DNA of 64,000 nucleotides, from contig CAYLZI010000001.1 of the NCBI GenBank assembly GCA_964388215.1, positions 6,980 through 70,979 of the forward strand, given 5' to 3'. The position numbers and the translations under genes are program-made. Under the pieces are notes generated by a model, which was not told the DNA's origin, did not search any database, and saw only the letters and a program-made list of their open reading frames with translations. The DNA is from an uncultured Anaerolinea sp. (GTDB lineage Bacteria > Chloroflexota > Anaerolineae > Anaerolineales > Villigracilaceae). Positions 12,774 through 64,000 of the stretch are shown piece after piece (positions within the stretch are counted from its first letter, which is position 1; each line of letters opens with the position of its first letter).

Positions 12774-13664
12774 TTACTCTCGCGATTCTTTTGCTAAATC
12801 TTTGACTTTTTTAGCAGCCGCGCCAATCGCTGCGGCTGCCCCGGCAAGGCCGGCGGCCATGCTCCCGGCAGAAACCCCAGGTTTCTCGGTAAAATCAGGC
12901 TGCAAGGCAGGGTCGGGCGATTCTGTAACTACTGGGGGGTTATTCGATGTAAATAGGTGGTCTGGCATGGGTTGTTCGCCTCCGCTGGTTGCGCTCGTTT
13001 GGGTTGGCTCCGCGCCCAAAGCACTACCAAGCCCATTCAAACTTCCCTGTAAACCAGAGCTGCTCGAACCGCCGCCCCCGCCGCCTCCAGATGATGACGC
13101 CGGATCGGTTGGGGTGGGTTGCTGGCCTCCCAATTTTTGTCCACCAGATGAAGAATTTTCTTGAGCGGCTGATTGCTCAGCAGCCGAAGGTTGATTCGCG
13201 CCTGGTGCTGGGTCGCCTGGCCCACTCCCACCAGAACCAGGGTCACCTGACCCACTACCGCCAGAACCAGAGCCGCCTGCCCCGCTCCCGCTAGAACCGC
13301 CTGATTCTGCGTTCGAAGGGCTGTTCTGCCCTGGCAGGGGATTGTTAGAAGTACCCCCTAAAACGCTTTCAGAAGAAAAATGTTGGGCAATTTCGTCATC
13401 TTCTAATTGAATAATCTGCATTATTTTTCGCAAGGCTTCATCGGCAAGCAAGAGCGCCTCCCCGGCGCGTTTATGGGCAGGCAGAGCAACTTCTTCCATC
13501 TCTTTATAAAACGCATCTGCCGATTTGCCAATCCAATCCTGCCGCAGGGCGTGCATCCGCTGACGCAAGAGAGAATGGTCCTGTAGAAGCGTCTCGCCTT
13601 CATCGCGGAAGATGCGCGCAATTTTGACCAATTCGTCATAGTTCAATTGCAGCAAAGATGACAT
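12774..13664 (-). CDS. WXG100-domain protein with long Gly/Ser/Pro-rich C-terminal extension (296 aa)
   Basis: The N-terminal ~100 aa (LQLNYDELVKIA...QDWIGKSADAFYKEM) is WXG100-like. About 170 aa of G/S/P-rich low complexity follows, then an Ala/Gly-rich hydrophobic stretch MAAGLAGAAAAIGAAA. Confidence 0.75.
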   Translation of the reverse strand: MSSLLQLNYDELVKIARIFRDEGETLLQDHSLLRQRMHALRQDWIGKSADAFYKEMEEVALPAHKRAGEALLLADEALRKIMQIIQLEDDEIAQHFSSESVLGGTSNNPLPGQNSPSNAESGGSSGSGAGGSGSGGSGSGDPGSGGSGPGDPAPGANQPSAAEQSAAQENSSSGGQKLGGQQPTPTDPASSSGGGGGGGSSSSGLQGSLNGLGSALGAEPTQTSATSGGEQPMPDHLFTSNNPPVVTESPDPALQPDFTEKPGVSAGSMAAGLAGAAAAIGAAAKKVKDLAKESRE

Positions 13665-20899: not shown

Positions 20900-20913
20900 A
20901 TCTGTTTCCCTGT

Positions 20914-22320
20914 TTACCTGTTTACCGGTTTTCCCGTTTGACTGACAAATTCCGCCAAAATATCGGCTATCGGCGCGTGGGGGGCGAGGAGTTGGGGGCG
21001 GATGGGGGTGATGTCGGTTTTTTCGCGGATGAGGGTTTGCAGGGAGCCGGAGAGTTTCTGGTCGCCCATGACGATGGCGCCGAGCAGGTGTTTTTCGCCA
21101 ACCATCAGGCGCAGGCGGTTGACTTCAAACCCGCCCTGGGCAACGATGACATCTGGCACTTGCCGCCAGGTTTCGCTGTCGCCGCGCGCGATGCCGAGCA
21201 GGTCGGGGTCTCCCTCACCCCTAACCCCTCTACCCTGGTGGGCACGCGTCCCGGGGGGAGATGGGAAATTGCCCCCTTCTCCCTTTGGGAGAAGGGCTGG
21301 GGATGAGGGAGGAGCCACCGCGCCAATGATGGTGACGGTCAGCCCGGCCAGGCGGGTGACGTTGAAGACAGGCGGCTTGCGGTAGGCTTCGGCGTGGCCG
21401 GTCATGTTGCGGGCGGCGGCACGGCCCTGCTCGCGGGCGGGATTCCACAGGCTGTCGAGCAGGTGTTTGCCACTGGCGGGGTCAAAGACCTGGGCCACAT
21501 CCCCGGCGGCGAAAATATCGGGCTGGCTGGCTTGCATATATTCGTTGACGATGATGCCGCGCTCACAATCCAACCCGGCTGTGCGCGCCAACTCCATGCG
21601 CGGGGCGATGCCGATGGCATACGCCAGCAGGTCGGCTTTGAGCGCGCGTCCGTCCGCCAAGCGCACGGCATTGATTTTGCCGTTTTTGCCGAGAATTTCG
21701 GCAATTTCGCTCTTGTGATGGAGGCTGATGCCCTCCTGCGCCAGCAGGCTTTCGATGATGCCCGATTCCAGTTCGTCCAGCACGCCGGGCCAGTAGCGCG
21801 GAGAGCGCAAAACGTAGTGGACTTTCATCCCGCGCGCCGCCAGCCCTTCGGCCAGTTCCAACGCGGTGATGCCGCCGCCGGTGACGATGGCGGCGCGTCC
21901 GCGTTTGGCGTTTGCCAGCAGGGCGCGCGCGTCGGCGAGATGGTCGAGTTTGTGAACGCCTTTCAACTCCGCGCCGGGGAGGTTGAGCGGCATGGCCTGC
22001 GCGCCGGTGGCAATCAGCAGTTTGTCGTAGGGCAGGCGCGTGCCGTTATCGAGTTCGACCTGTTTTTCGACGGAAAAAATGCGCGTGGCGCGGGCGCGGT
22101 AAAAACGCAGGTTGAGTTTGAGAAAATCTTCCTTGCGATAGGGGTAGAGCAGGGTTTCGTCCAGTTCGCCGGTCAGGTAGTAGGCCAGGCCGGGACGCGA
22201 GTAATAGCCAAAGGGGTCATCGCCCACAAGATGCAATTCCCCGCCGGGGTCGTGGGCGCGGATTTCTTCGGCGGCGGCAATGGCGGCAACGCCCGTGCCG
22301 AGGATGGCATAGCGGGTCAT
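20914..22320 (-). CDS. FAD-dependent pyridine nucleotide-disulfide family oxidoreductase carrying an in-frame repeat insertion
   Basis: FAD fold YAILGTGVAAIAAAEE. Second dinucleotide fold AAIVTGGGITALELAEGL, plus FAAGDVA. The insertion is listed as a separate feature. Confidence 0.85.
   Translation of the reverse strand: MTRYAILGTGVAAIAAAEEIRAHDPGGELHLVGDDPFGYYSRPGLAYYLTGELDETLLYPYRKEDFLKLNLRFYRARATRIFSVEKQVELDNGTRLPYDKLLIATGAQAMPLNLPGAELKGVHKLDHLADARALLANAKRGRAAIVTGGGITALELAEGLAARGMKVHYVLRSPRYWPGVLDELESGIIESLLAQEGISLHHKSEIAEILGKNGKINAVRLADGRALKADLLAYAIGIAPRMELARTAGLDCERGIIVNEYMQASQPDIFAAGDVAQVFDPASGKHLLDSLWNPAREQGRAAARNMTGHAEAYRKPPVFNVTRLAGLTVTIIGAVAPPSSPALLPKGEGGNFPSPPGTRAHQGRGVRGEGDPDLLGIARGDSETWRQVPDVIVAQGGFEVNRLRLMVGEKHLLGAIVMGDQKLSGSLQTLIREKTDITPIRPQLLAPHAPIADILAEFVSQTGKPVNR
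21212..21310. repeat. Family 1 repeat copy inside the oxidoreductase CDS (in frame)
   Basis: On the minus strand the first ~45 nt are near-identical to copy 20258-20335. Translated as PPSSPALLPKGEGGNFPSPPGTRAHQGRGVRGEGDP without a stop. Confidence 0.8.
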
Positions 22321-26948: not shown

Positions 26949-28895
26949 TCAAATGAATTCTTCCAAATCGAACTCTTTCAGAATTGAAGGCGTTGGCGCG
27001 CCGCGCTCGTCCCAGCCGATGCGTTTGTAGTAAACCGGCAGCCAGGCGCGTAGTTCTTCAGGCGTCAGCCCCTTTCCGGCGATGGGTCCATCGGCAAGAT
27101 GGTGATAGGCGCGCGCCGAGAGGGTGTCATCAGCGGCGGTGAAACCTTCGCGCAGCAGGAACAGCCGACCCAGGTTGATGGAGCGCAGGCCGGTAGCGTT
27201 GATGTCATTGGCGCTGATTGGCTCGCCAAAGGCGGCGGAAAGCGCGTCCACCATGTGATGATATTCATACGGGTAGAAATGGCAAATGACCGCGCAGTCG
27301 AAGAAATTTTTGAAGGCAGTTTCGTAGTAGAAGCCCTCGATTTTGCGTTCCGAAATGCCCCACAAGGGCAGCGGGGCCGGAACGCCCATTTCCTTCAGCC
27401 GAGCGGCGATGTCGCCGCCGTCAAAGGTGGCAAAGGTGTCGTTCAGGTTGTGCATGTGGTCGGCGCCGGTGGCGGAGAGGGCATAGCCCATGGCCAGGGT
27501 GTGCTTGAGGCGCGGGTCGTGCAGGGGCAGTTCCTGTCCGCGCGCGACGGCCAGCATCTCCGCCGCGTTGCCGCCAAGTTGGGCGGCCATGCGCGCGCTG
27601 CCTTCGGCCATTTGGTTGCCAAGTCCTTCGCGCCTGGCAATCGAATGGATGCTTTCGATGAGGGAATGTCCGTCGCCGAAGCGCGGGCCGTCAACCAGGC
27701 CCTTTTCCGTTGCCTCCATCGCAAAGGCAATCGTGCCGCCGGTCGAGATGGTGTCCAACCCGTAGGCGGCGCATAGTTCGTTGGCTTTGGCAACCACAAC
27801 CGGGTCGTTGATTTTGCAGAGCGGGCCGAGCGCGCCCAGGCTTTCATATTCCGGGCCGCCGTATTGGGGCGCGATGGTCAAGTCGCCTGCGTGGGCAACG
27901 ACCAGTTTGCAGCGCACCGGACAGCGGCTGCAGGTGTCGCGGTCTTGTAAAATTTTCGGGAAGAAATGACTGGCATCTAGTTGCTCAATGCCCTCGAAAA
28001 CGCCGTCGCGGTAATTGTTGATGGCGGTTGCCCCGGCGTCGTGATTGAACTGCACCGAGCCGGAGGTGCCCGCCGCAATCGCCCAGCCCATCATGCCCTT
28101 GTAATTGGCGTTGACCCATTTCTGGACGGTCTGGAACAGGGCCTTGTTCGCCACGCCAATATTGGTCGAACCACGCGCGGCAATCGCCTTGAGATTTTTG
28201 CTGCCCATCACCGCGCCCATCCCTGAACGCCCGGCGGCGCGGTTGATATCGTGCATGACAGCGGCGAAGCGGGCGAGGTTTTCACCCGCCGGGCCAATCT
28301 GCGCTACGCGAACTTTCCCGCTCCGCTGCGCTACGGGGACTTTCCCGCTCCGCTGCGCTACGGGGACTTTTTCATCATCCAATTCATGCCGAATCATTTC
28401 CTGCGCATCGGTAGTCAACTTTCCCCACAGCAGAGCAGCGTCGCGGATTTCGACTGCCCCGTCTCGAATCCACACATAGACCGGCTTTTCAGCTTTGCCC
28501 TGAATAACCACCGCGTCATACCCGGCGCGTTTGAGTTCCGCGCCCCACCAGCCACCCGCCTCGCAACTGCCCAGCGCCCCCGTCAACGGGGATTTGCCGC
28601 CAACAGCGTGCCGCCCGGTTCCGGGCAGGGCCGTTCCGGTCAGCAGGCCGGGGGCGAAGATGAGCAGGTTTTCGGGGCCAAGCGGGTCGGCGTTGGCTGG
28701 CATTTCAGTCAGCAGATAATGCAGGATGAAGTTGCGCCCGCCAATGTATTTGCGATAAAACGACGCTTCCGGTTTGTCTACCCAAATTTTTCCGCTCGAT
28801 AAATCCACGCGCAAAATCTGCCCGGCGCAGGGGCTTTGCCCGGCGAGAAATTCGGGGTTGGGCTGGCTGAAAAAATAGATGGTGTTAGCGGGCAT
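26949..28895 (-). CDS. Aldehyde:ferredoxin oxidoreductase family (tungstopterin) enzyme
   Basis: Start trimmed to ATG 28895 (AGGAG 9 nt upstream). Motifs GQILRVDLSSGKI, IGPAGENLARFAAVM, GMGAVMGSKNLKAIA, GGPEYES and LDTISTGG. Confidence 0.9.
   Translation of the reverse strand: MPANTIYFFSQPNPEFLAGQSPCAGQILRVDLSSGKIWVDKPEASFYRKYIGGRNFILHYLLTEMPANADPLGPENLLIFAPGLLTGTALPGTGRHAVGGKSPLTGALGSCEAGGWWGAELKRAGYDAVVIQGKAEKPVYVWIRDGAVEIRDAALLWGKLTTDAQEMIRHELDDEKVPVAQRSGKVPVAQRSGKVRVAQIGPAGENLARFAAVMHDINRAAGRSGMGAVMGSKNLKAIAARGSTNIGVANKALFQTVQKWVNANYKGMMGWAIAAGTSGSVQFNHDAGATAINNYRDGVFEGIEQLDASHFFPKILQDRDTCSRCPVRCKLVVAHAGDLTIAPQYGGPEYESLGALGPLCKINDPVVVAKANELCAAYGLDTISTGGTIAFAMEATEKGLVDGPRFGDGHSLIESIHSIARREGLGNQMAEGSARMAAQLGGNAAEMLAVARGQELPLHDPRLKHTLAMGYALSATGADHMHNLNDTFATFDGGDIAARLKEMGVPAPLPLWGISERKIEGFYYETAFKNFFDCAVICHFYPYEYHHMVDALSAAFGEPISANDINATGLRSINLGRLFLLREGFTAADDTLSARAYHHLADGPIAGKGLTPEELRAWLPVYYKRIGWDERGAPTPSILKEFDLEEFI
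28301..28372. repeat. 27-nt tandem repeat (about 2.6 copies), family 2, in frame inside the AOR gene
   Basis: GCGCTACG(C/G)G(A/G)ACTTTCCCGCTCCGCT units, translated as KVPVAQRSG-KVPVAQRSG-KVRVAQ. Confidence 0.85.
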
Positions 28896-29189: not shown

Positions 29190-29369
29190 CCCTCACCCTG
29201 GCCCTCTCCCGGTGGGAGAGGGGAAAATCCCGTAAACTGGGAAGCTCCCTTCTCCCGGCGGAGAGGGGAAAATCCCGTAAACTGGGAAGCTCCCTTCTCT
29301 CGGTGGAGAGGGGAAAATCCCGTAAACTGGGAAGCTCCCTTCTCTCGGTGGGGGAGGGCGTAGGGTGAG
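29190..29369. repeat. Family 1 repeat expanded to 3.5 tandem 45-bp units
   Basis: Units start at 29202, 29247, 29292 and 29337 (partial): CCCTTCTCYCGGYGGAGAGGGGAAAATCCCGTAAACTGGGAAGCT. Bracketed by CCCTCACCCTG ... TAGGGTGAG. Intergenic. Confidence 0.9.
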
Positions 29370-47645: not shown

Positions 47646-48989
47646 TTAGGCCGCCCACAGCCGTTTGGCGGCGGCGCGCGCGTTTGCTTTGAGTTCAGTC
47701 CAGTCTACATTCAACACCTGTCCATCACGCATGAGCGTTTTGCCCGCCACAACGGTGGCCTTTACATCGGAGGCGTGACAGTAGAGCAGGAGTTGGTCGT
47801 ACAGGTTATGCTCTTCGAGCGGGGTGGGTAAATCGGGGACGATGAGCTGGAAATCGGCCTGCCAGCCGGGTTCCAGCCGCCCAACCCCTTCCAGGCTGAT
47901 GGCTTTTGCGCCGCCCTCGGTCGCCATATACCAGACTTCGTGAGCGGGCATGACCTGCGGGTTGAGATGAGCGGCCTTGTGAATTAAGAATGCTCCGCGC
48001 ATGACCTCGAAGAAATCGTGGATGTAGCCGTCGCTGCCCAGCCCGACGGTAATACCGGCCTGCAACAGTTGCGGCACAGGGGCAATCCCGCCGCCGACTT
48101 CGCAGTTCGAGAGCGGCATGTGGGTAGCGCTGACCCCTCGCGCGGCCATCAACTCAATTTCATCGGGCGAGAGTTGCACGCATTGCGAGGCCAACATCCC
48201 ACTCCGCTGCGCTTCGGGGACTTTGCCCGGCCCCAGTACGCCCAGGCTGTCATAATAGAACATCGGGCGCATTCCAAATTTCTCGAGGCAGTATTTCGGC
48301 TCATAGACGCCCTCCGAAACATGGGCATGAGTCAGCGCGCCACGTTTCAAAGCCATCTCGAATGCCTGGCGGATGAAATCGGCATTGCAGGTGAAGGTGG
48401 TGTGGAAACACATCATCCCGGTCAGCAGCGAACCGACTGGACGCGAATCGATAAATTCAGCGTTTTCGCGCAGGCCGAGTTGGGCATTTGCTTCCGAAAC
48501 GCGCTGGGTGGCCTCGAAGGACAGGATTCCGCGCAGGCCGCGTTTTTCGAGCAGATTGGCCTGGGCCTTCAAGATTCCCGGCAGGGCGTTGGGGGCTTCC
48601 TGGCAGTCGTAAAAGGAGGTGATTCCGCTCTGTACCATGCGCGCGGTCTGAATGTCGGTGGCAGCGCAAATCATCTCGATATCGAGGCGGTTTTCGATGC
48701 GAGGCCACCAGAATTCTTCAAGGAAGTCCCAAAAGCCGATGGGGACTGATTGCATGGGAATCCCATGCGCCAGGACTCCATACAGGTGGGTGTGGGCGTC
48801 CACGAAACCGGGGGCCAGCACCCGTCCGGGCGCGTCCCAGACTTCATCGTCGGGGTAGTGCTGGCGCAGGTCGGCGTGGGGGGCCACGTCGCTGACGCGG
48901 TCAGATTCAACGCGAATCCCCCAGCCCTTGCGCGGGGACTCACGGGGGGAGGTGATTACCCACTCGGGCAGGACAATTAAATTTGGCAT
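47646..48989 (-). CDS. SsnA-like amidohydrolase
   Basis: Start trimmed to ATG 48989. Motifs GFVDAHTHLY, FWWPRIENRLD...SGITSFYDCQEAP...LRGILSFEATQR and GSDGYIHD track E. coli SsnA as recalled. Contains a 9-codon family 2 insertion. Confidence 0.8.
   Translation of the reverse strand: MPNLIVLPEWVITSPRESPRKGWGIRVESDRVSDVAPHADLRQHYPDDEVWDAPGRVLAPGFVDAHTHLYGVLAHGIPMQSVPIGFWDFLEEFWWPRIENRLDIEMICAATDIQTARMVQSGITSFYDCQEAPNALPGILKAQANLLEKRGLRGILSFEATQRVSEANAQLGLRENAEFIDSRPVGSLLTGMMCFHTTFTCNADFIRQAFEMALKRGALTHAHVSEGVYEPKYCLEKFGMRPMFYYDSLGVLGPGKVPEAQRSGMLASQCVQLSPDEIELMAARGVSATHMPLSNCEVGGGIAPVPQLLQAGITVGLGSDGYIHDFFEVMRGAFLIHKAAHLNPQVMPAHEVWYMATEGGAKAISLEGVGRLEPGWQADFQLIVPDLPTPLEEHNLYDQLLLYCHASDVKATVVAGKTLMRDGQVLNVDWTELKANARAAAKRLWAA
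48198..48228. repeat. Family 2 element, single copy, in frame inside the SsnA-like gene
   Basis: CCCACTCCGCTGCGCTTCGGGGACTTTGCCC versus CCCGCTCCGCTGCGCTACGGGGACTTTCCCG in the AOR gene, 28 of 31 identical. Translated KVPEAQRSG. Confidence 0.8.
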
Positions 48990-54014: not shown

Positions 54015-54076
54015 GGATTTACGATTTACGATTTTGGATTTTCGGTTTGTCGAGTAACGATTTTCGATTTCGGATT
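54015..54076. repeat. Heptanucleotide-type repeats (CGATTT[T/A] units) in the leader region
   Basis: GGATTTACGATTTACGATTTTGGATTTTCGG (54015-54045) and CGATTTTCGATTTCGGATT (54058-54076). Confidence 0.6.
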
Positions 54077-63707: not shown

Positions 63708-63731
63708 TCAAGACTGCTCACTGATTACTGA

Positions 63732-64000
63732 TTACTGGAAATACCCCAGCGCCATCCGCAACTTCTCTTCCACATCGTCAGGGGCGTCCTTGGGTAAAGA
63801 TTGCAGCGCCGACTGGGCTTCGATGACCGAGTAGCCGAGCGCGGTCAGGGCGGCCAGTACTTCTGAATCGGTATCAGACATAGCGGCGATTTTTTCCAAC
63901 CCGCTGGCAGGTTTGAGCCGGTCTTTGAGATAGAGTAACATCTTTTGGGCGGTTTTCTTGCCCACGCCAGGGACGCGGCTGAGCAAGTCTGCTTCTTCAC
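63732..64000 (-). CDS. ruvA: Holliday junction helicase subunit RuvA (3' part; start beyond window)
   Basis: Helix-hairpin-helix LSRVPGVGKKTAQKMLLYLKDRL and C-terminal domain III (LTALGYSVIEAQSAL). The frame stays open to the window end. Confidence 0.85.
   Translation of the reverse strand, partial: EEADLLSRVPGVGKKTAQKMLLYLKDRLKPASGLEKIAAMSDTDSEVLAALTALGYSVIEAQSALQSLPKDAPDDVEEKLRMALGYFQ

Follow-up and report, generated by a model that had tools for sequence, protein, structure and literature searches.

A 27-base unit inserted in two unrelated enzyme genes probably belongs to a family of very small, mobile dispersed repeats

How did two unrelated enzyme genes come to carry the same 27 bases of DNA? 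In a 64-kb window (the whole stretch of DNA that was analysed) the unit occurs as two exact tandem copies in a gene for an aldehyde:ferredoxin oxidoreductase (AOR) and once more in a gene for an amidohydrolase (Table 1), and the AOR and amidohydrolase copies are translated in one common frame. Tandem Repeats Finder gave a period of 27, 2.7 copies and 95% matches for 28299-28370, in line with the approximately 2.6 copies of the first-pass annotation, and the coding strand reads as two exact units followed by the native sequence AAAGTTCGCGTAGCGCAG; the single amidohydrolase copy in the same frame was likewise as annotated. The AOR copy number of two is as assembled. The AOR protein has the Pfam domains AFOR_N and AFOR_C and matches the solved structure 1AOR (E=3e-107), and the second protein has Amidohydro_1 and Amidohydro_3 and matches 3HPA. 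The best NCBIfam match of the latter is SsnA and hence the label ‘SsnA-like’ is fair, although the match lies under the cut-off. No further copies were found in the window, either with up to 7 mismatches or by a profile search, so that the total stands at two loci. The window was simulated 200 times with a second-order Markov model; the closest match to the unit in these runs had 6 mismatches or more as against the 2 observed, which excludes chance for the amidohydrolase match.

Table 1. Copies of the 27-base unit, the adjoining native sequence, the host genes and the insert junctions (marked by a slash), with positions numbered along the window.
Feature	Coordinates	Strand	Description
Element copy 1 (5' copy), AOR	28344..28370	-	AAAGTCCCCGTAGCGCAGCGGAGCGGG, the 27-base unit, read as KVPVAQRSG; AOR residues 176-184
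Element copy 2, AOR	28317..28343	-	Identical to copy 1; AOR residues 185-193
Native AOR sequence	28299..28316	-	AAAGTTCGCGTAGCGCAG, K-V-R-V-A-Q of the conserved KVRVAQIGPAGEN block; adjoins the insert
Amidohydrolase element copy	48198..48224	-	AAAGTCCCCGAAGCGCAGCGGAGTGGG, 25/27 identical; read as KVPEAQRSG, residues 256-264
Host gene 1, tungsten-type aldehyde:ferredoxin oxidoreductase (AOR), P0001	26949..28895	-	648 aa, intact open reading frame
Host gene 2, SsnA-like amidohydrolase / deaminase-family protein, P0121	47646..48989	-	447 aa, intact open reading frame
Insert junctions			GATGAA/AAAGTCCCC and GGG/AAAGTTCGC

Alignment of the host proteins with their homologues agreed with the earlier view that the AOR segment is an insert. 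None of the 39 closest AOR homologues aligned (82-65% identity) has the 18 residues, and the 9-residue amidohydrolase insert is missing in 117 of 119 homologues and present in 2, giving a total of 3 filled alleles in 120. Both inserts are gaps relative to 1AOR and 3HPA. Because they are missing in nearly all homologues and in the solved structures, the AOR and amidohydrolase segments are, on these alignments, true insertions. In the predicted structures, which had been proposed as a check for loops, both inserts are coil lying between a helix and a strand, with pLDDT values below 50 in the AOR insert and, in the amidohydrolase insert, for residues 256-261. Hence both inserts model as disordered surface loops.

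Empty alleles are known for three insertion sites only, namely the amidohydrolase site and two sites in AOR, A and B. Site A is the one occupied in the window and, among the AOR orthologues compared, is filled there only; site B is empty in the window gene, and an AOR orthologue that is 86% identical (on locus L134) has site A empty and one copy at site B. Each of the three inserts falls between two codons, directly 5' of A(T/A)NG, and is made up of one or two whole copies of the same 27 nt (27, 27 and 2 x 27); target-site duplication is absent throughout. At AOR site B and the amidohydrolase site the right flank is A/AT(N)G and the left flank has 2-3 nt of G, and neither site has homology of the kind found at AOR site A. 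Across 130 distinct copies the flanks show conservation of A at -4, A at -2, G at -1, G at +1 and A at +2, followed by preferences for T and G, and these conserved flank positions suggest recognition of the element ends.

At AOR site A the orthologues read AAA RTC CGC GTG GCG CAG, which is at most 16/18 identical to the first 18 nt of the element. The corresponding sequence in the window, AAAGTTCGCGTAGCGCAG, is the sole non-element site there within 3 mismatches of these 18 nt, for a chance expectation of 0.28. As it both resembles the 5' end of the element and directly adjoins the insert, AAAGTTCGCGTAGCGCAG at 28299-28316 is likely, by sequence, to be the target or homology site of the AOR insertion, which strengthens the earlier hint of a homology-guided event. 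Nothing in the AOR orthologues corresponds to the final 9 nt of the unit (CGGAGCGGG).

The amidohydrolase site has a longer history. Its insert is common to relatives at 82-89% identity, and the two AOR copies are the same in sequence and private to this genome; therefore, the amidohydrolase copy is the older. The three filled alleles do not form a clade and are interleaved with empty ones on the gene tree: a filled allele (P0122) is 96% identical to an empty one (P0123), and another (P0126) is the sister of an empty one (P0130). The split between filled and empty alleles is backed by 1 informative site only in the alignment. Empty alleles read CCG GGN ATG, and the codon before the insert is GGC in 3/3 filled alleles and GGA or GGT in the empty ones. 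This pattern is a hint that the filled alleles go back to a single ancestor, with exchange of short tracts, and not to several insertions; a search for a recombination tract as the cause of the patchy distribution found no informative site near the insert except this GGC codon. The interleaving is also compatible with precise loss. Comparison of orthologous sites thus shows the gain of copies and possibly also their loss.

The unit is not confined to this genome. We searched for further copies with an exact scan of 596 Gb of reference genomes for the 22-nt core TCCCCGNAGCGCAGCGGAGNGG (20 specified bases; about 1 chance match expected at uniform composition), which gave at least 139 copies, spread over at least 118 loci. 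Among the matches listed, 77 loci belong to Chloroflexota, 13 to Smithella/Syntrophaceae, 16 to Actinomycetota and 12 to others, with at least 3-6 loci each in several bins (for example contig prefixes JBDRGC01, CAWAOA01 and CAYZGO01). Most of these sequences are metagenome bins and some cross-phylum matches look mis-binned, such as L065, the flanks of which are the same as those of the Smithella locus L033. As far as these assignments go, Anaerolineae (Chloroflexota) commonly carry the family, and it occurs also in Smithella-type genomes; it is widespread in Anaerolineae and apparently undescribed so far. The matches listed comprise intergenic copies, head-to-tail arrays (periods of 27, 30, 54 and 60) and copies within unrelated genes, which are read in more than one frame and lie in either orientation. 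Arrays with the 27-nt period occur at L055, L080 and L132, and partial units at L098 resemble slippage between internal AGCG repeats. Tandem heptamer runs (CTACCAG, CAACTAT, CCATTCA and CGTGAAA) flank some copies.

Most genic copies among the matches listed share one frame, (K)VPxAQRSG, found in GlmS, UppS, an OppC-like permease, BioB and a phytoene/squalene synthase. The element is read as SPRSAAER in a DegT aminotransferase and an ABC ATPase, and lies on the opposite strand in the Der GTPase. Hence the original statement that the unit is always in frame holds in that the inserts are multiples of three, and fails in that one frame is not used throughout. Five of the six frames of the unit are free of stops, and the sixth has a stop only in the T variant. 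The consensus, A-N-A-G TCCCCG-N-AGCG-N-AGCG-G-AG-Y-GGGA, has three NAGCG pentamers as its core inside a short TCCC/GGGA inverted repeat, with a conserved span of 28 nt; its two variable positions N1 and N2 show no covariation. We distinguish a CTACAG sub-family with a GTAG tag, which adjoins a short stem on the reverse strand of ...GGGACTACAG, and the AAAG sub-family of the window, which has neither a GTAG nor a CGTC tag.

Folded as single-stranded DNA, the unit formed only weak structures (-2.8 to -4.4 kcal/mol) that were no better than those of shuffled sequences (z from -0.54 to +0.61), for which reason we do not call it a REP. An Rfam scan of the window and 18 element-bearing loci at gathering thresholds returned tRNAs only, so the unit represents no described RNA family. 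The T variant (GTAGCGCAGC..GG.AGCG) resembles the D-arm of bacterial tRNA-Pro; we regard this likeness as coincidence, the commonest variant having A at that position. The KVPxAQRSG variants, concatenated, shared words with 1596 candidates in a database of 5.8 billion proteins, none at E<=10. Carriage by phages was discarded upon finding only 2 matches in IMG/VR. CRISPR repeats, uptake sequences and variable regions of diversity-generating retroelements (DGR) were all dropped: the arrays lack spacers, the copies are insertions rather than products of point mutation, and the size is wrong. One Y1_Tnp gene was found (L136, 1948-2451), approximately 80 nt from the nearest element copy and flanked by a different GTAG-tagged hairpin repeat, and tblastn detected no other Y1 genes in approximately 1 Mb of element-bearing loci. 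No general adjacency to RAYT/Y1 genes was seen in these loci.

By analogy, the best reading places the unit nearest to cyanobacterial small dispersed repeats (SDRs) and to intragenic REPs. SDR1-8 are reportedly the subject of a 2008 description by Elhai et al. of seemingly mobile repeats in Nostoc punctiforme and its relatives. To our knowledge, no mechanism of SDR movement has been described since. The 27-base unit falls within the 21-27 nt class described there, is non-coding, occurs as dispersed and tandem copies, is present or absent at orthologous sites, and has a mobility inferred without a known mechanism; its copies, like SDRs, also occur beside tandem heptamers and other short repeats or inside them. 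PMC5861425 reports SDRs from Nostocaceae only. In contrast, the present family occurs in Chloroflexota and Desulfobacterota, so that it would be an analogue and not a homologue, and it differs further in that its insertion in conserved enzyme genes is documented against empty orthologous sites, in three cases.

REPs are high-copy, dispersed and often clustered repeats of 20-40 nt (Di Nocera et al. 2013, PMC3733652; Bertels and Rainey 2011, PMC3116915). Intragenic REPs with GTAG or CGTC tags encode short peptides in several species, often as dimers, and GTAG repeats occur in Chloroflexi (Di Nocera et al. 2013, PMC3733652). Our unit is similarly short, dispersed, often clustered and also intragenic, and one sub-family carries the GTAG tag. 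However, REPs are strong imperfect palindromes whereas the unit has an inverted repeat of 4-6 bp and no significant fold, REPINs are inverted doublets whereas its clusters run head-to-tail, and the AAAG sub-family of the window is untagged, with no cognate RAYT found in approximately 1 Mb of element-bearing loci. Rickettsia palindromic elements (RPEs) lie in frame in many metabolic genes that are unrelated to each other, where the protein fold can accommodate them (Ogata et al. 2000, as summarised in PMC10969869). The 27-base element is also found in frame in unrelated genes, but RPEs are palindromes of approximately 100-150 bp restricted to Rickettsia, and the unit has 27 nt and is barely palindromic.

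MITEs span approximately 50-500 bp, with terminal inverted repeats and target-site duplication, in contrast to 27 nt, the TCCC/GGGA inverted repeat only and no duplication at three sites. With MITEs and PATEs, the miniature elements derived from IS200/IS605, the element shares that it is non-autonomous and presumably mobilised in trans. With IS200/IS605 elements it shares the lack of target-site duplication and insertion beside a short specific sequence (here A(T/A)NG on the right flank), but it has no convincing subterminal hairpins, and neither a parent IS nor a linked enzyme was found.

We consider it probable that the 27-mer represents a mobile dispersed repeat of very small size (27-28 nt), non-coding and with defined ends. 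We infer that a trans-acting enzyme recognising these ends would move or copy the element. Our best guess for this enzyme is a single-strand-DNA HUH/Y1 activity, IS200/IS605- or RAYT-like, since it would fit insertion without duplication, exact ends, head-to-tail arrays and a loss that may be precise; this step we put forward tentatively. Against it weigh the weak fold of the unit, which sets it apart from REPs and IS200/IS605 ends, and the different hairpin repeat around the one Y1 gene found. Replication slippage could then grow or shrink arrays, leading to the two identical AOR copies. A copy in a gene would persist only if it adds a multiple of three bases, keeps the frame open and falls in a surface loop that tolerates it. 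In genes with high third-position G+C, ATNG would fall mostly at codon position 1 (60% of ATNG in the window's ORFs begin there), so that target preference alone would explain the (K)VPxAQRSG frame. A fuller reading, which is possible but doubtful, holds that the 27-28-nt element actively transposes without duplication, homes to look-alikes of its own 5' end (thereby building head-to-tail arrays), repeatedly hits or precisely leaves the same codon boundary in orthologues, and has crossed between Chloroflexota and Desulfobacterota.

The unit could also have spread without a dedicated enzyme. Copies or arrays already present would then serve as the source for template switching (copy choice) guided by homology or microhomology, or for ectopic gene conversion; we regard this as conceivable rather than likely. 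A nascent strand on a look-alike, such as AAAGTYCGCGTRGCGCAG in AOR, would mispair with an array, copy one or more 27-nt units and return. The AOR-A insert does adjoin a 16/18-identical native 18-mer that is unique in the window, and for this homology a recombinational or template-switch route is no worse a fit than an enzymatic one; two units followed by the native 18-mer without duplication are the expected product of a switch into and out of an array, arrays of the 27-nt period exist, and the partial units at L098 look like internal AGCG slippage. However, AOR site B and the amidohydrolase site gained the same 27 nt with the same ends in the absence of such homology, where switching from arrays should yield arbitrary rotations and lengths. 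The conserved flanks point instead to recognised ends, and rare replication errors alone would hardly sustain spread over many genomes of at least two phyla.

The native look-alike had also raised the possibility that the AOR repeat is a duplicated and diverged copy of the KVRVAQ-coding sequence, the amidohydrolase copy being unrelated or derived. Such a local origin accounts for the 16/18 likeness to the first 18 nt of the unit but is very improbable: native duplication would give ATTGGCCCG where the unit has the unmatched CGGAGCGGG, other genomes carry the unit at no fewer than 118 loci, and the insertion in the amidohydrolase gene is the earlier one. For the same reasons (9 of the 27 nt lack a native counterpart, and the unit is present elsewhere in the window and in other genomes) we rejected an ordinary intragenic VNTR of native sequence. 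That most genic copies share one frame might suggest that different proteins each gained, through protein-level convergence or selection, a peptide motif with a function, for example in modification or cleavage. We hold this to be extremely improbable, given that identity extends at the DNA level to synonymous positions, that the unit is found between genes and in arrays and, within genes, also in two further sense frames and in antisense orientation, that the frame bias is predicted by the ATNG preference together with third-position G+C bias, and that the inserts are modelled as disordered loops. The copies might finally be artefacts of assembly or binning derived from a mis-assembled repetitive k-mer. 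This is highly improbable, as the host genes are conserved and intact and the inserts lie exactly between their codons, the amidohydrolase insert recurs in two independent assemblies, one from JGI and one from Logan, the family is present in assemblies of many projects, and the AOR array is short (54 nt). Collectively, the occurrence of the unit between genes, in arrays and in unrelated genes in several frames, and its presence or absence in orthologues, upheld the original preference for a mobile or templated mini-insertion over convergence and went against a local origin in AOR.

The small mobile repeat that we favour implies that DNA elements of very small size are able to spread and, in doing so, give proteins additional peptide loops, and extends the phenomenon of very small repeats known from Nostoc to another phylum and many uncultured genomes. 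The clean filled and empty sites in conserved enzymes fix the element ends to within one base, and the ends together with the target preference (A(T/A)NG or an element look-alike) provide a handle on the mechanism in the form of testable predictions. The copies also form a natural record of where loops of 9-18 residues fit into AOR, GlmS, Der and BioB with the reading frame kept. Such inserts shift alignments and may pass for lineage-specific features of proteins, and their presence or absence could serve as a strain marker in Anaerolineae populations. If the active-transposition reading is true, the element would be among the smallest mobile DNA elements known, and would offer a sequence-defined, widely distributed model for how SDR-type mini-elements move.

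Copies of the 27-nt element, its host genes and the other repeats that we observed are collected in the table. The first-pass annotation, which had reported a KVP(V/E)AQRSG-coding unit shared by the AOR (aldehyde:ferredoxin oxidoreductase) gene and an SsnA-like amidohydrolase gene, is confirmed for both genes. On the minus strand the AOR gene reads GAT GAT GAA, two copies of AAA GTC CCC GTA GCG CAG CGG AGC GGG, then AAA GTT CGC GTA GCG CAG ATT GGC, and the '0.6 copy' of the tandem repeat is native KVRVAQ-coding sequence. Neither a search tolerating as many as 7 mismatches nor a family-derived profile turned up another copy in the window. When the window was simulated 200 times with a second-order Markov model, the closest sequence to the unit always differed at 6 or more positions, hence the similarity between the two genes is not due to chance.

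Coordinates of the element copies, host genes and neighbouring repeats
Feature	Sequence	Position	Strand	Remarks
Tandem repeat, AOR gene	window	28299-28370		period 27, 2.7 copies, 95% matches (Tandem Repeats Finder)
Full unit, AOR gene	window	28344-28370	minus	identical to unit at 28317-28343, as assembled
Full unit, AOR gene	window	28317-28343	minus	identical to unit at 28344-28370, as assembled
Third copy, amidohydrolase gene	window	48198-48224	minus	25/27 identity, same frame as AOR copies
AOR, tungsten-type, 648 aa	window	26949-28895	minus	Pfam AFOR_N + AFOR_C; 1AOR match E=3e-107
Amidohydrolase, 447 aa	window	47646-48989	minus	best NCBIfam match SsnA, under cut-off
45-nt repeat	window	29205-29358		3.4 tandem copies, 93% matches
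30-nt repeat	window	13210-13298		three units, in frame
ORF with 30-nt repeat, 296 aa	window	12774-13664	minus
Short tandem repeat GATTTTC	window	54016-54070		7.7 copies
Short tandem repeat CTGTTTAC	window	20902-20939		4.8 copies
Short tandem repeat ACTGATT	window	63720-63737		2.6 copies
P0126 amidohydrolase gene	L002	140-1504
Y1_Tnp gene	L136	1948-2451		low-G+C, RAYT-like
REPtron-like region	L136	1800-2651

Two longer repeats were also observed in the window. The 45-nt unit, which holds a hairpin-like motif CCCTCTCCC...GGGAGAGGG, lies in the spacer between an ornithine-carbamoyltransferase-like gene and a ThiS-like ORF upstream of AOR; the matching spacer in the syntenic locus L124 is just ~25 nt, so it is the window alone that shows this insertion or expansion, and no copy of the unit was found in the other loci examined. 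The 30-nt unit, unrelated to the 27-mer, encodes a Gly/Ser-rich linker (GSGGSGSGDPGSGGSGPGDP) in a protein whose N-terminus resembles a WXG100/ESAT-6-type domain (DWIGKSADAF).

The 18 residues KVPVAQRSGKVPVAQRSG are absent, exactly, from all 39 of the closest AOR homologues aligned (82-65% identity), and the 9-residue amidohydrolase insert is present in only 2 of 119 homologues, P0122 (89% identity, GKIPEAQRSG) and P0126 (82% identity, GKVPEAQRSG). Both inserts are gaps in alignments to solved structures. The AlphaFold models each contain a single internal stretch with pLDDT <50, residues 176-192 in AOR and 256-261 in the amidohydrolase, and in both it is coil linking a helix to a strand. Together these features identify both inserts as loop decorations on otherwise intact enzymes.

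We scanned the GTDB representatives (one genome per species, 596 Gb) with the pattern TCCCCGNAGCGCAGCGGAGNGG, whose 20 specified bases give an expectation of ~1 match at uniform composition. At least 139 exact copies were found at 118 or more loci. By record title, and among the matches listed, at least 77 loci are from Chloroflexota (Anaerolineales, Anaerolineae, Flexilinea, Brevefilum and others), at least 16 from Solirubrobacterales/Actinomycetes, at least 13 from Smithella/Syntrophaceae and at least 12 from other taxa. Several bins gave 3-6 loci apiece among the matches listed, these per-genome copy numbers being lower bounds. The element-bearing sequences are mostly metagenome bins and some of the 'other' loci look mis-binned. 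Judged by their flanks, this is likely for L065 (a contig binned as Moraniibacteriota, with flanks near-identical to those of the Smithella contig L033) and for L016 and L069 ('Acidobacteriota' contigs with flanks typical of Anaerolineales copies), and the cross-phylum range is for this reason probably overstated. The actinobacterial loci are probably also distinct from the family, in that the 22-nt core lies inside one longer conserved motif (...GCAATCTG..GCGCG(N)CGCGC..TTC TCCCCGGAGCGCAGCGGAGGGG AGGTCAATTCCGGAGGAGGGG..CCCCTCC) resembling three consecutive hairpins (L009, L021, L025, L027, L039, L054, L061, L063, L064, L074, L078, L079, L082, L083, L110 and L114). Two of these loci were compared with Rfam and gave no match for the motif, so it may belong to a structured RNA not yet described or to a repeat separate from the 27-mer.

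Family copies are single or form head-to-tail arrays with periods of 27 (L055, L080), 30 (L034, L036, L084), 54 (L057) and 60 nt (L045, two variants alternating). A profile search adds variants that differ chiefly at the first base of each pentamer, the core being NAGCG-NAGCG-GAGYG. Other short repeats or tandem heptamers often surround the copies, and heptamer runs like those of the window flank them in L077, L122, L136 and loci of assembly prefix JBDRGC01. Just two copies were found in viral contigs, no Rfam family matches the element, and no published description of the family was found in the literature searched.

Pfam confirms that copies lie inside genuine genes of unrelated families. 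The element is read as VPxAQRSG in GlmS, UppS (two copies, at the N-terminus), an OppC-like permease, BioB and a phytoene/squalene synthase, as SPRSAAER in a DegT-family aminotransferase and an ABC ATPase linker, and from the opposite strand (SAALRG) in the Der GTPase. This use of the same DNA in other frames and on both strands contradicts a selected peptide motif. Five of the six frames are stop-free and the sixth has a stop in the T variant only. At genic insertions AT(N)G comes after the element, and 60% of ATNG in the window ORFs start at codon position 1 because the third position is 65% G+C. Hence no explanation at the protein level is required for the surplus of VPxAQRSG readings.

Empty alleles are known at the DNA level for three insertion sites only. 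AOR site A is filled in the window alone when compared with the 39 aligned homologues. Scanning metagenomes for the sub-family found in the window (AAAGTCCCCGNAGCGCAGCGGAGNGGG) yielded 14 loci, among them L134, whose AOR is 86% identical to its orthologue in the window; here site A is empty and one copy lies at a site B (…EKNL[KVPGAQRSG]IDGPRFG…) that is empty in the window and all other orthologues. The three filled amidohydrolase alleles form no clade, P0122 being 96% identical to the empty P0123 and P0126 sister to the empty P0130 (92%). When three alleles of each state, filled and empty, were aligned as DNA, one informative site only backed the split between them, and no common haplotype surrounds the insert. 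Such a pattern requires that the element inserted repeatedly at one codon boundary, was precisely lost, or was exchanged in very short tracts; the codon before the insert, GGC in filled alleles and GGA or GGT in empty ones, weighs slightly in favour of the filled alleles sharing one origin. Furthermore, arrays vary in copy number, as do the orthologous intergenic loci L098, L130, L133 and L142. Among about a dozen genic insertions, orthologous AOR genes were hit twice independently and the amidohydrolase boundary was hit, or vacated, repeatedly, which suggests that insertion hot spots exist. Besides the 27-mer, P0126 has an unlike insert of 21 nt, likewise in frame (alignment columns 549-570, region AAGCATGTCCCGAGTTGCGAGGGAAAC, peptide HKHVPSCEGN), missing in the other five of the six alleles, which from its TCCC...GGGA architecture, shared with the 27-mer, may represent another mini-insertion family.

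At all three sites the gain is an exact multiple of one 27 nt, between codons and with no target duplication, the boundary being ambiguous by one A. Empty amidohydrolase alleles join CCG GGN to ATG (filled: CCG GGC, 27 nt, ATG), AOR site B joins AAT CTS to RTN GAC (filled: AAT CTC, 27 nt, ATA GAC) and site A joins GAx to AAA RTC CGC (filled: GAA, twice 27 nt, AAA GTT CGC). Flank positions -4 (A), -2 (A), -1 (G), +1 (G) and +2 (A) are conserved among 130 distinct copies, and T is less strongly preferred at +3 and G at +5. This makes the conserved unit 28 nt long, with adjacent units in 27-nt arrays sharing one A. In orthologues, the native sequence after the site A insert matches the first 18 nt of the element at up to 16 of 18 positions; outside the element copies, no other site of the window comes within three mismatches of this 18-mer (0.28 expected by chance). 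Hence the element landed directly upstream of the closest look-alike of its 5' end, a geometry that also produces head-to-tail arrays.

The copies therefore make up a family whose ends are defined and whose members were gained, with no duplication, at orthologous sites beside A(T/A)NG or a self-look-alike. Its dispersal in unrelated genes and its gain at orthologous sites support the earlier proposal of a mobile or templated mini-insertion, and the insertion, family and gain/loss evidence contradicts both local duplication of AOR sequence and an assembly artefact. We favour a model where a trans-acting activity recognising the element's ends moves the 27-mer, since the ends are identical at AOR site B and in the amidohydrolase, both without flanking homology; the second AOR copy would then come from replication slippage. 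The main rival model, in which arrays act as donors for template switching or ectopic conversion without a dedicated enzyme, accounts very well for AOR site A but leaves the constant ends at the other two sites unexplained, and we regard it as rather unlikely. For an end-recognising activity the best available analogy, albeit a tentative one, would be a single-strand HUH/Y1-type enzyme, given the lack of duplication, the short adjacent target, possible precise excision and self-targeting arrays. The 27-nt unit itself folds poorly.

The sole Y1 gene near a 27-mer copy is in L136, and no other was found in the ~1 Mb of loci examined. Its flanks hold hairpin repeats of its own, different from the 27-mer. 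Three of these, tagged with GTAG (GTAG GTCACGTTTCCAACGTGAC), lie upstream of it, and one similar hairpin, CTACCAG heptamers and then 2-3 copies of the 27-mer family downstream; from this arrangement the region looks like a REPtron in a repeat 'junkyard'.

GTAG- and CGTC-tagged REPs have been described within genes, with GTAG repeats in Chloroflexi (Di Nocera et al. 2013, PMC3733652). However, the 27-mer is barely palindromic, it forms no inverted doublets in its arrays, and neither tag is present in the sub-family of the window. It likewise lacks the inverted terminal repeats, duplication and size of classical MITEs, and although Rickettsia RPEs also insert in frame in unrelated genes, they are ~150 bp (PMC10969869). 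We therefore use none of these three labels. The closest analogue is the Nostoc small dispersed repeats (SDRs), which are 21-27 nt, dispersed and tandem, and apparently mobile by an unknown mechanism. They are reported from Nostocaceae only (PMC5861425). The heptamer neighbours of the 27-mer recall the heptameric repeats associated with cyanobacterial SDRs. Since the Nostoc SDRs come closest and the other classes do not fit, we file the 27-mer family as a newly recognised case, in a new phylum, of the very small mobile repeats that occur dispersed in genomes and are still poorly understood.
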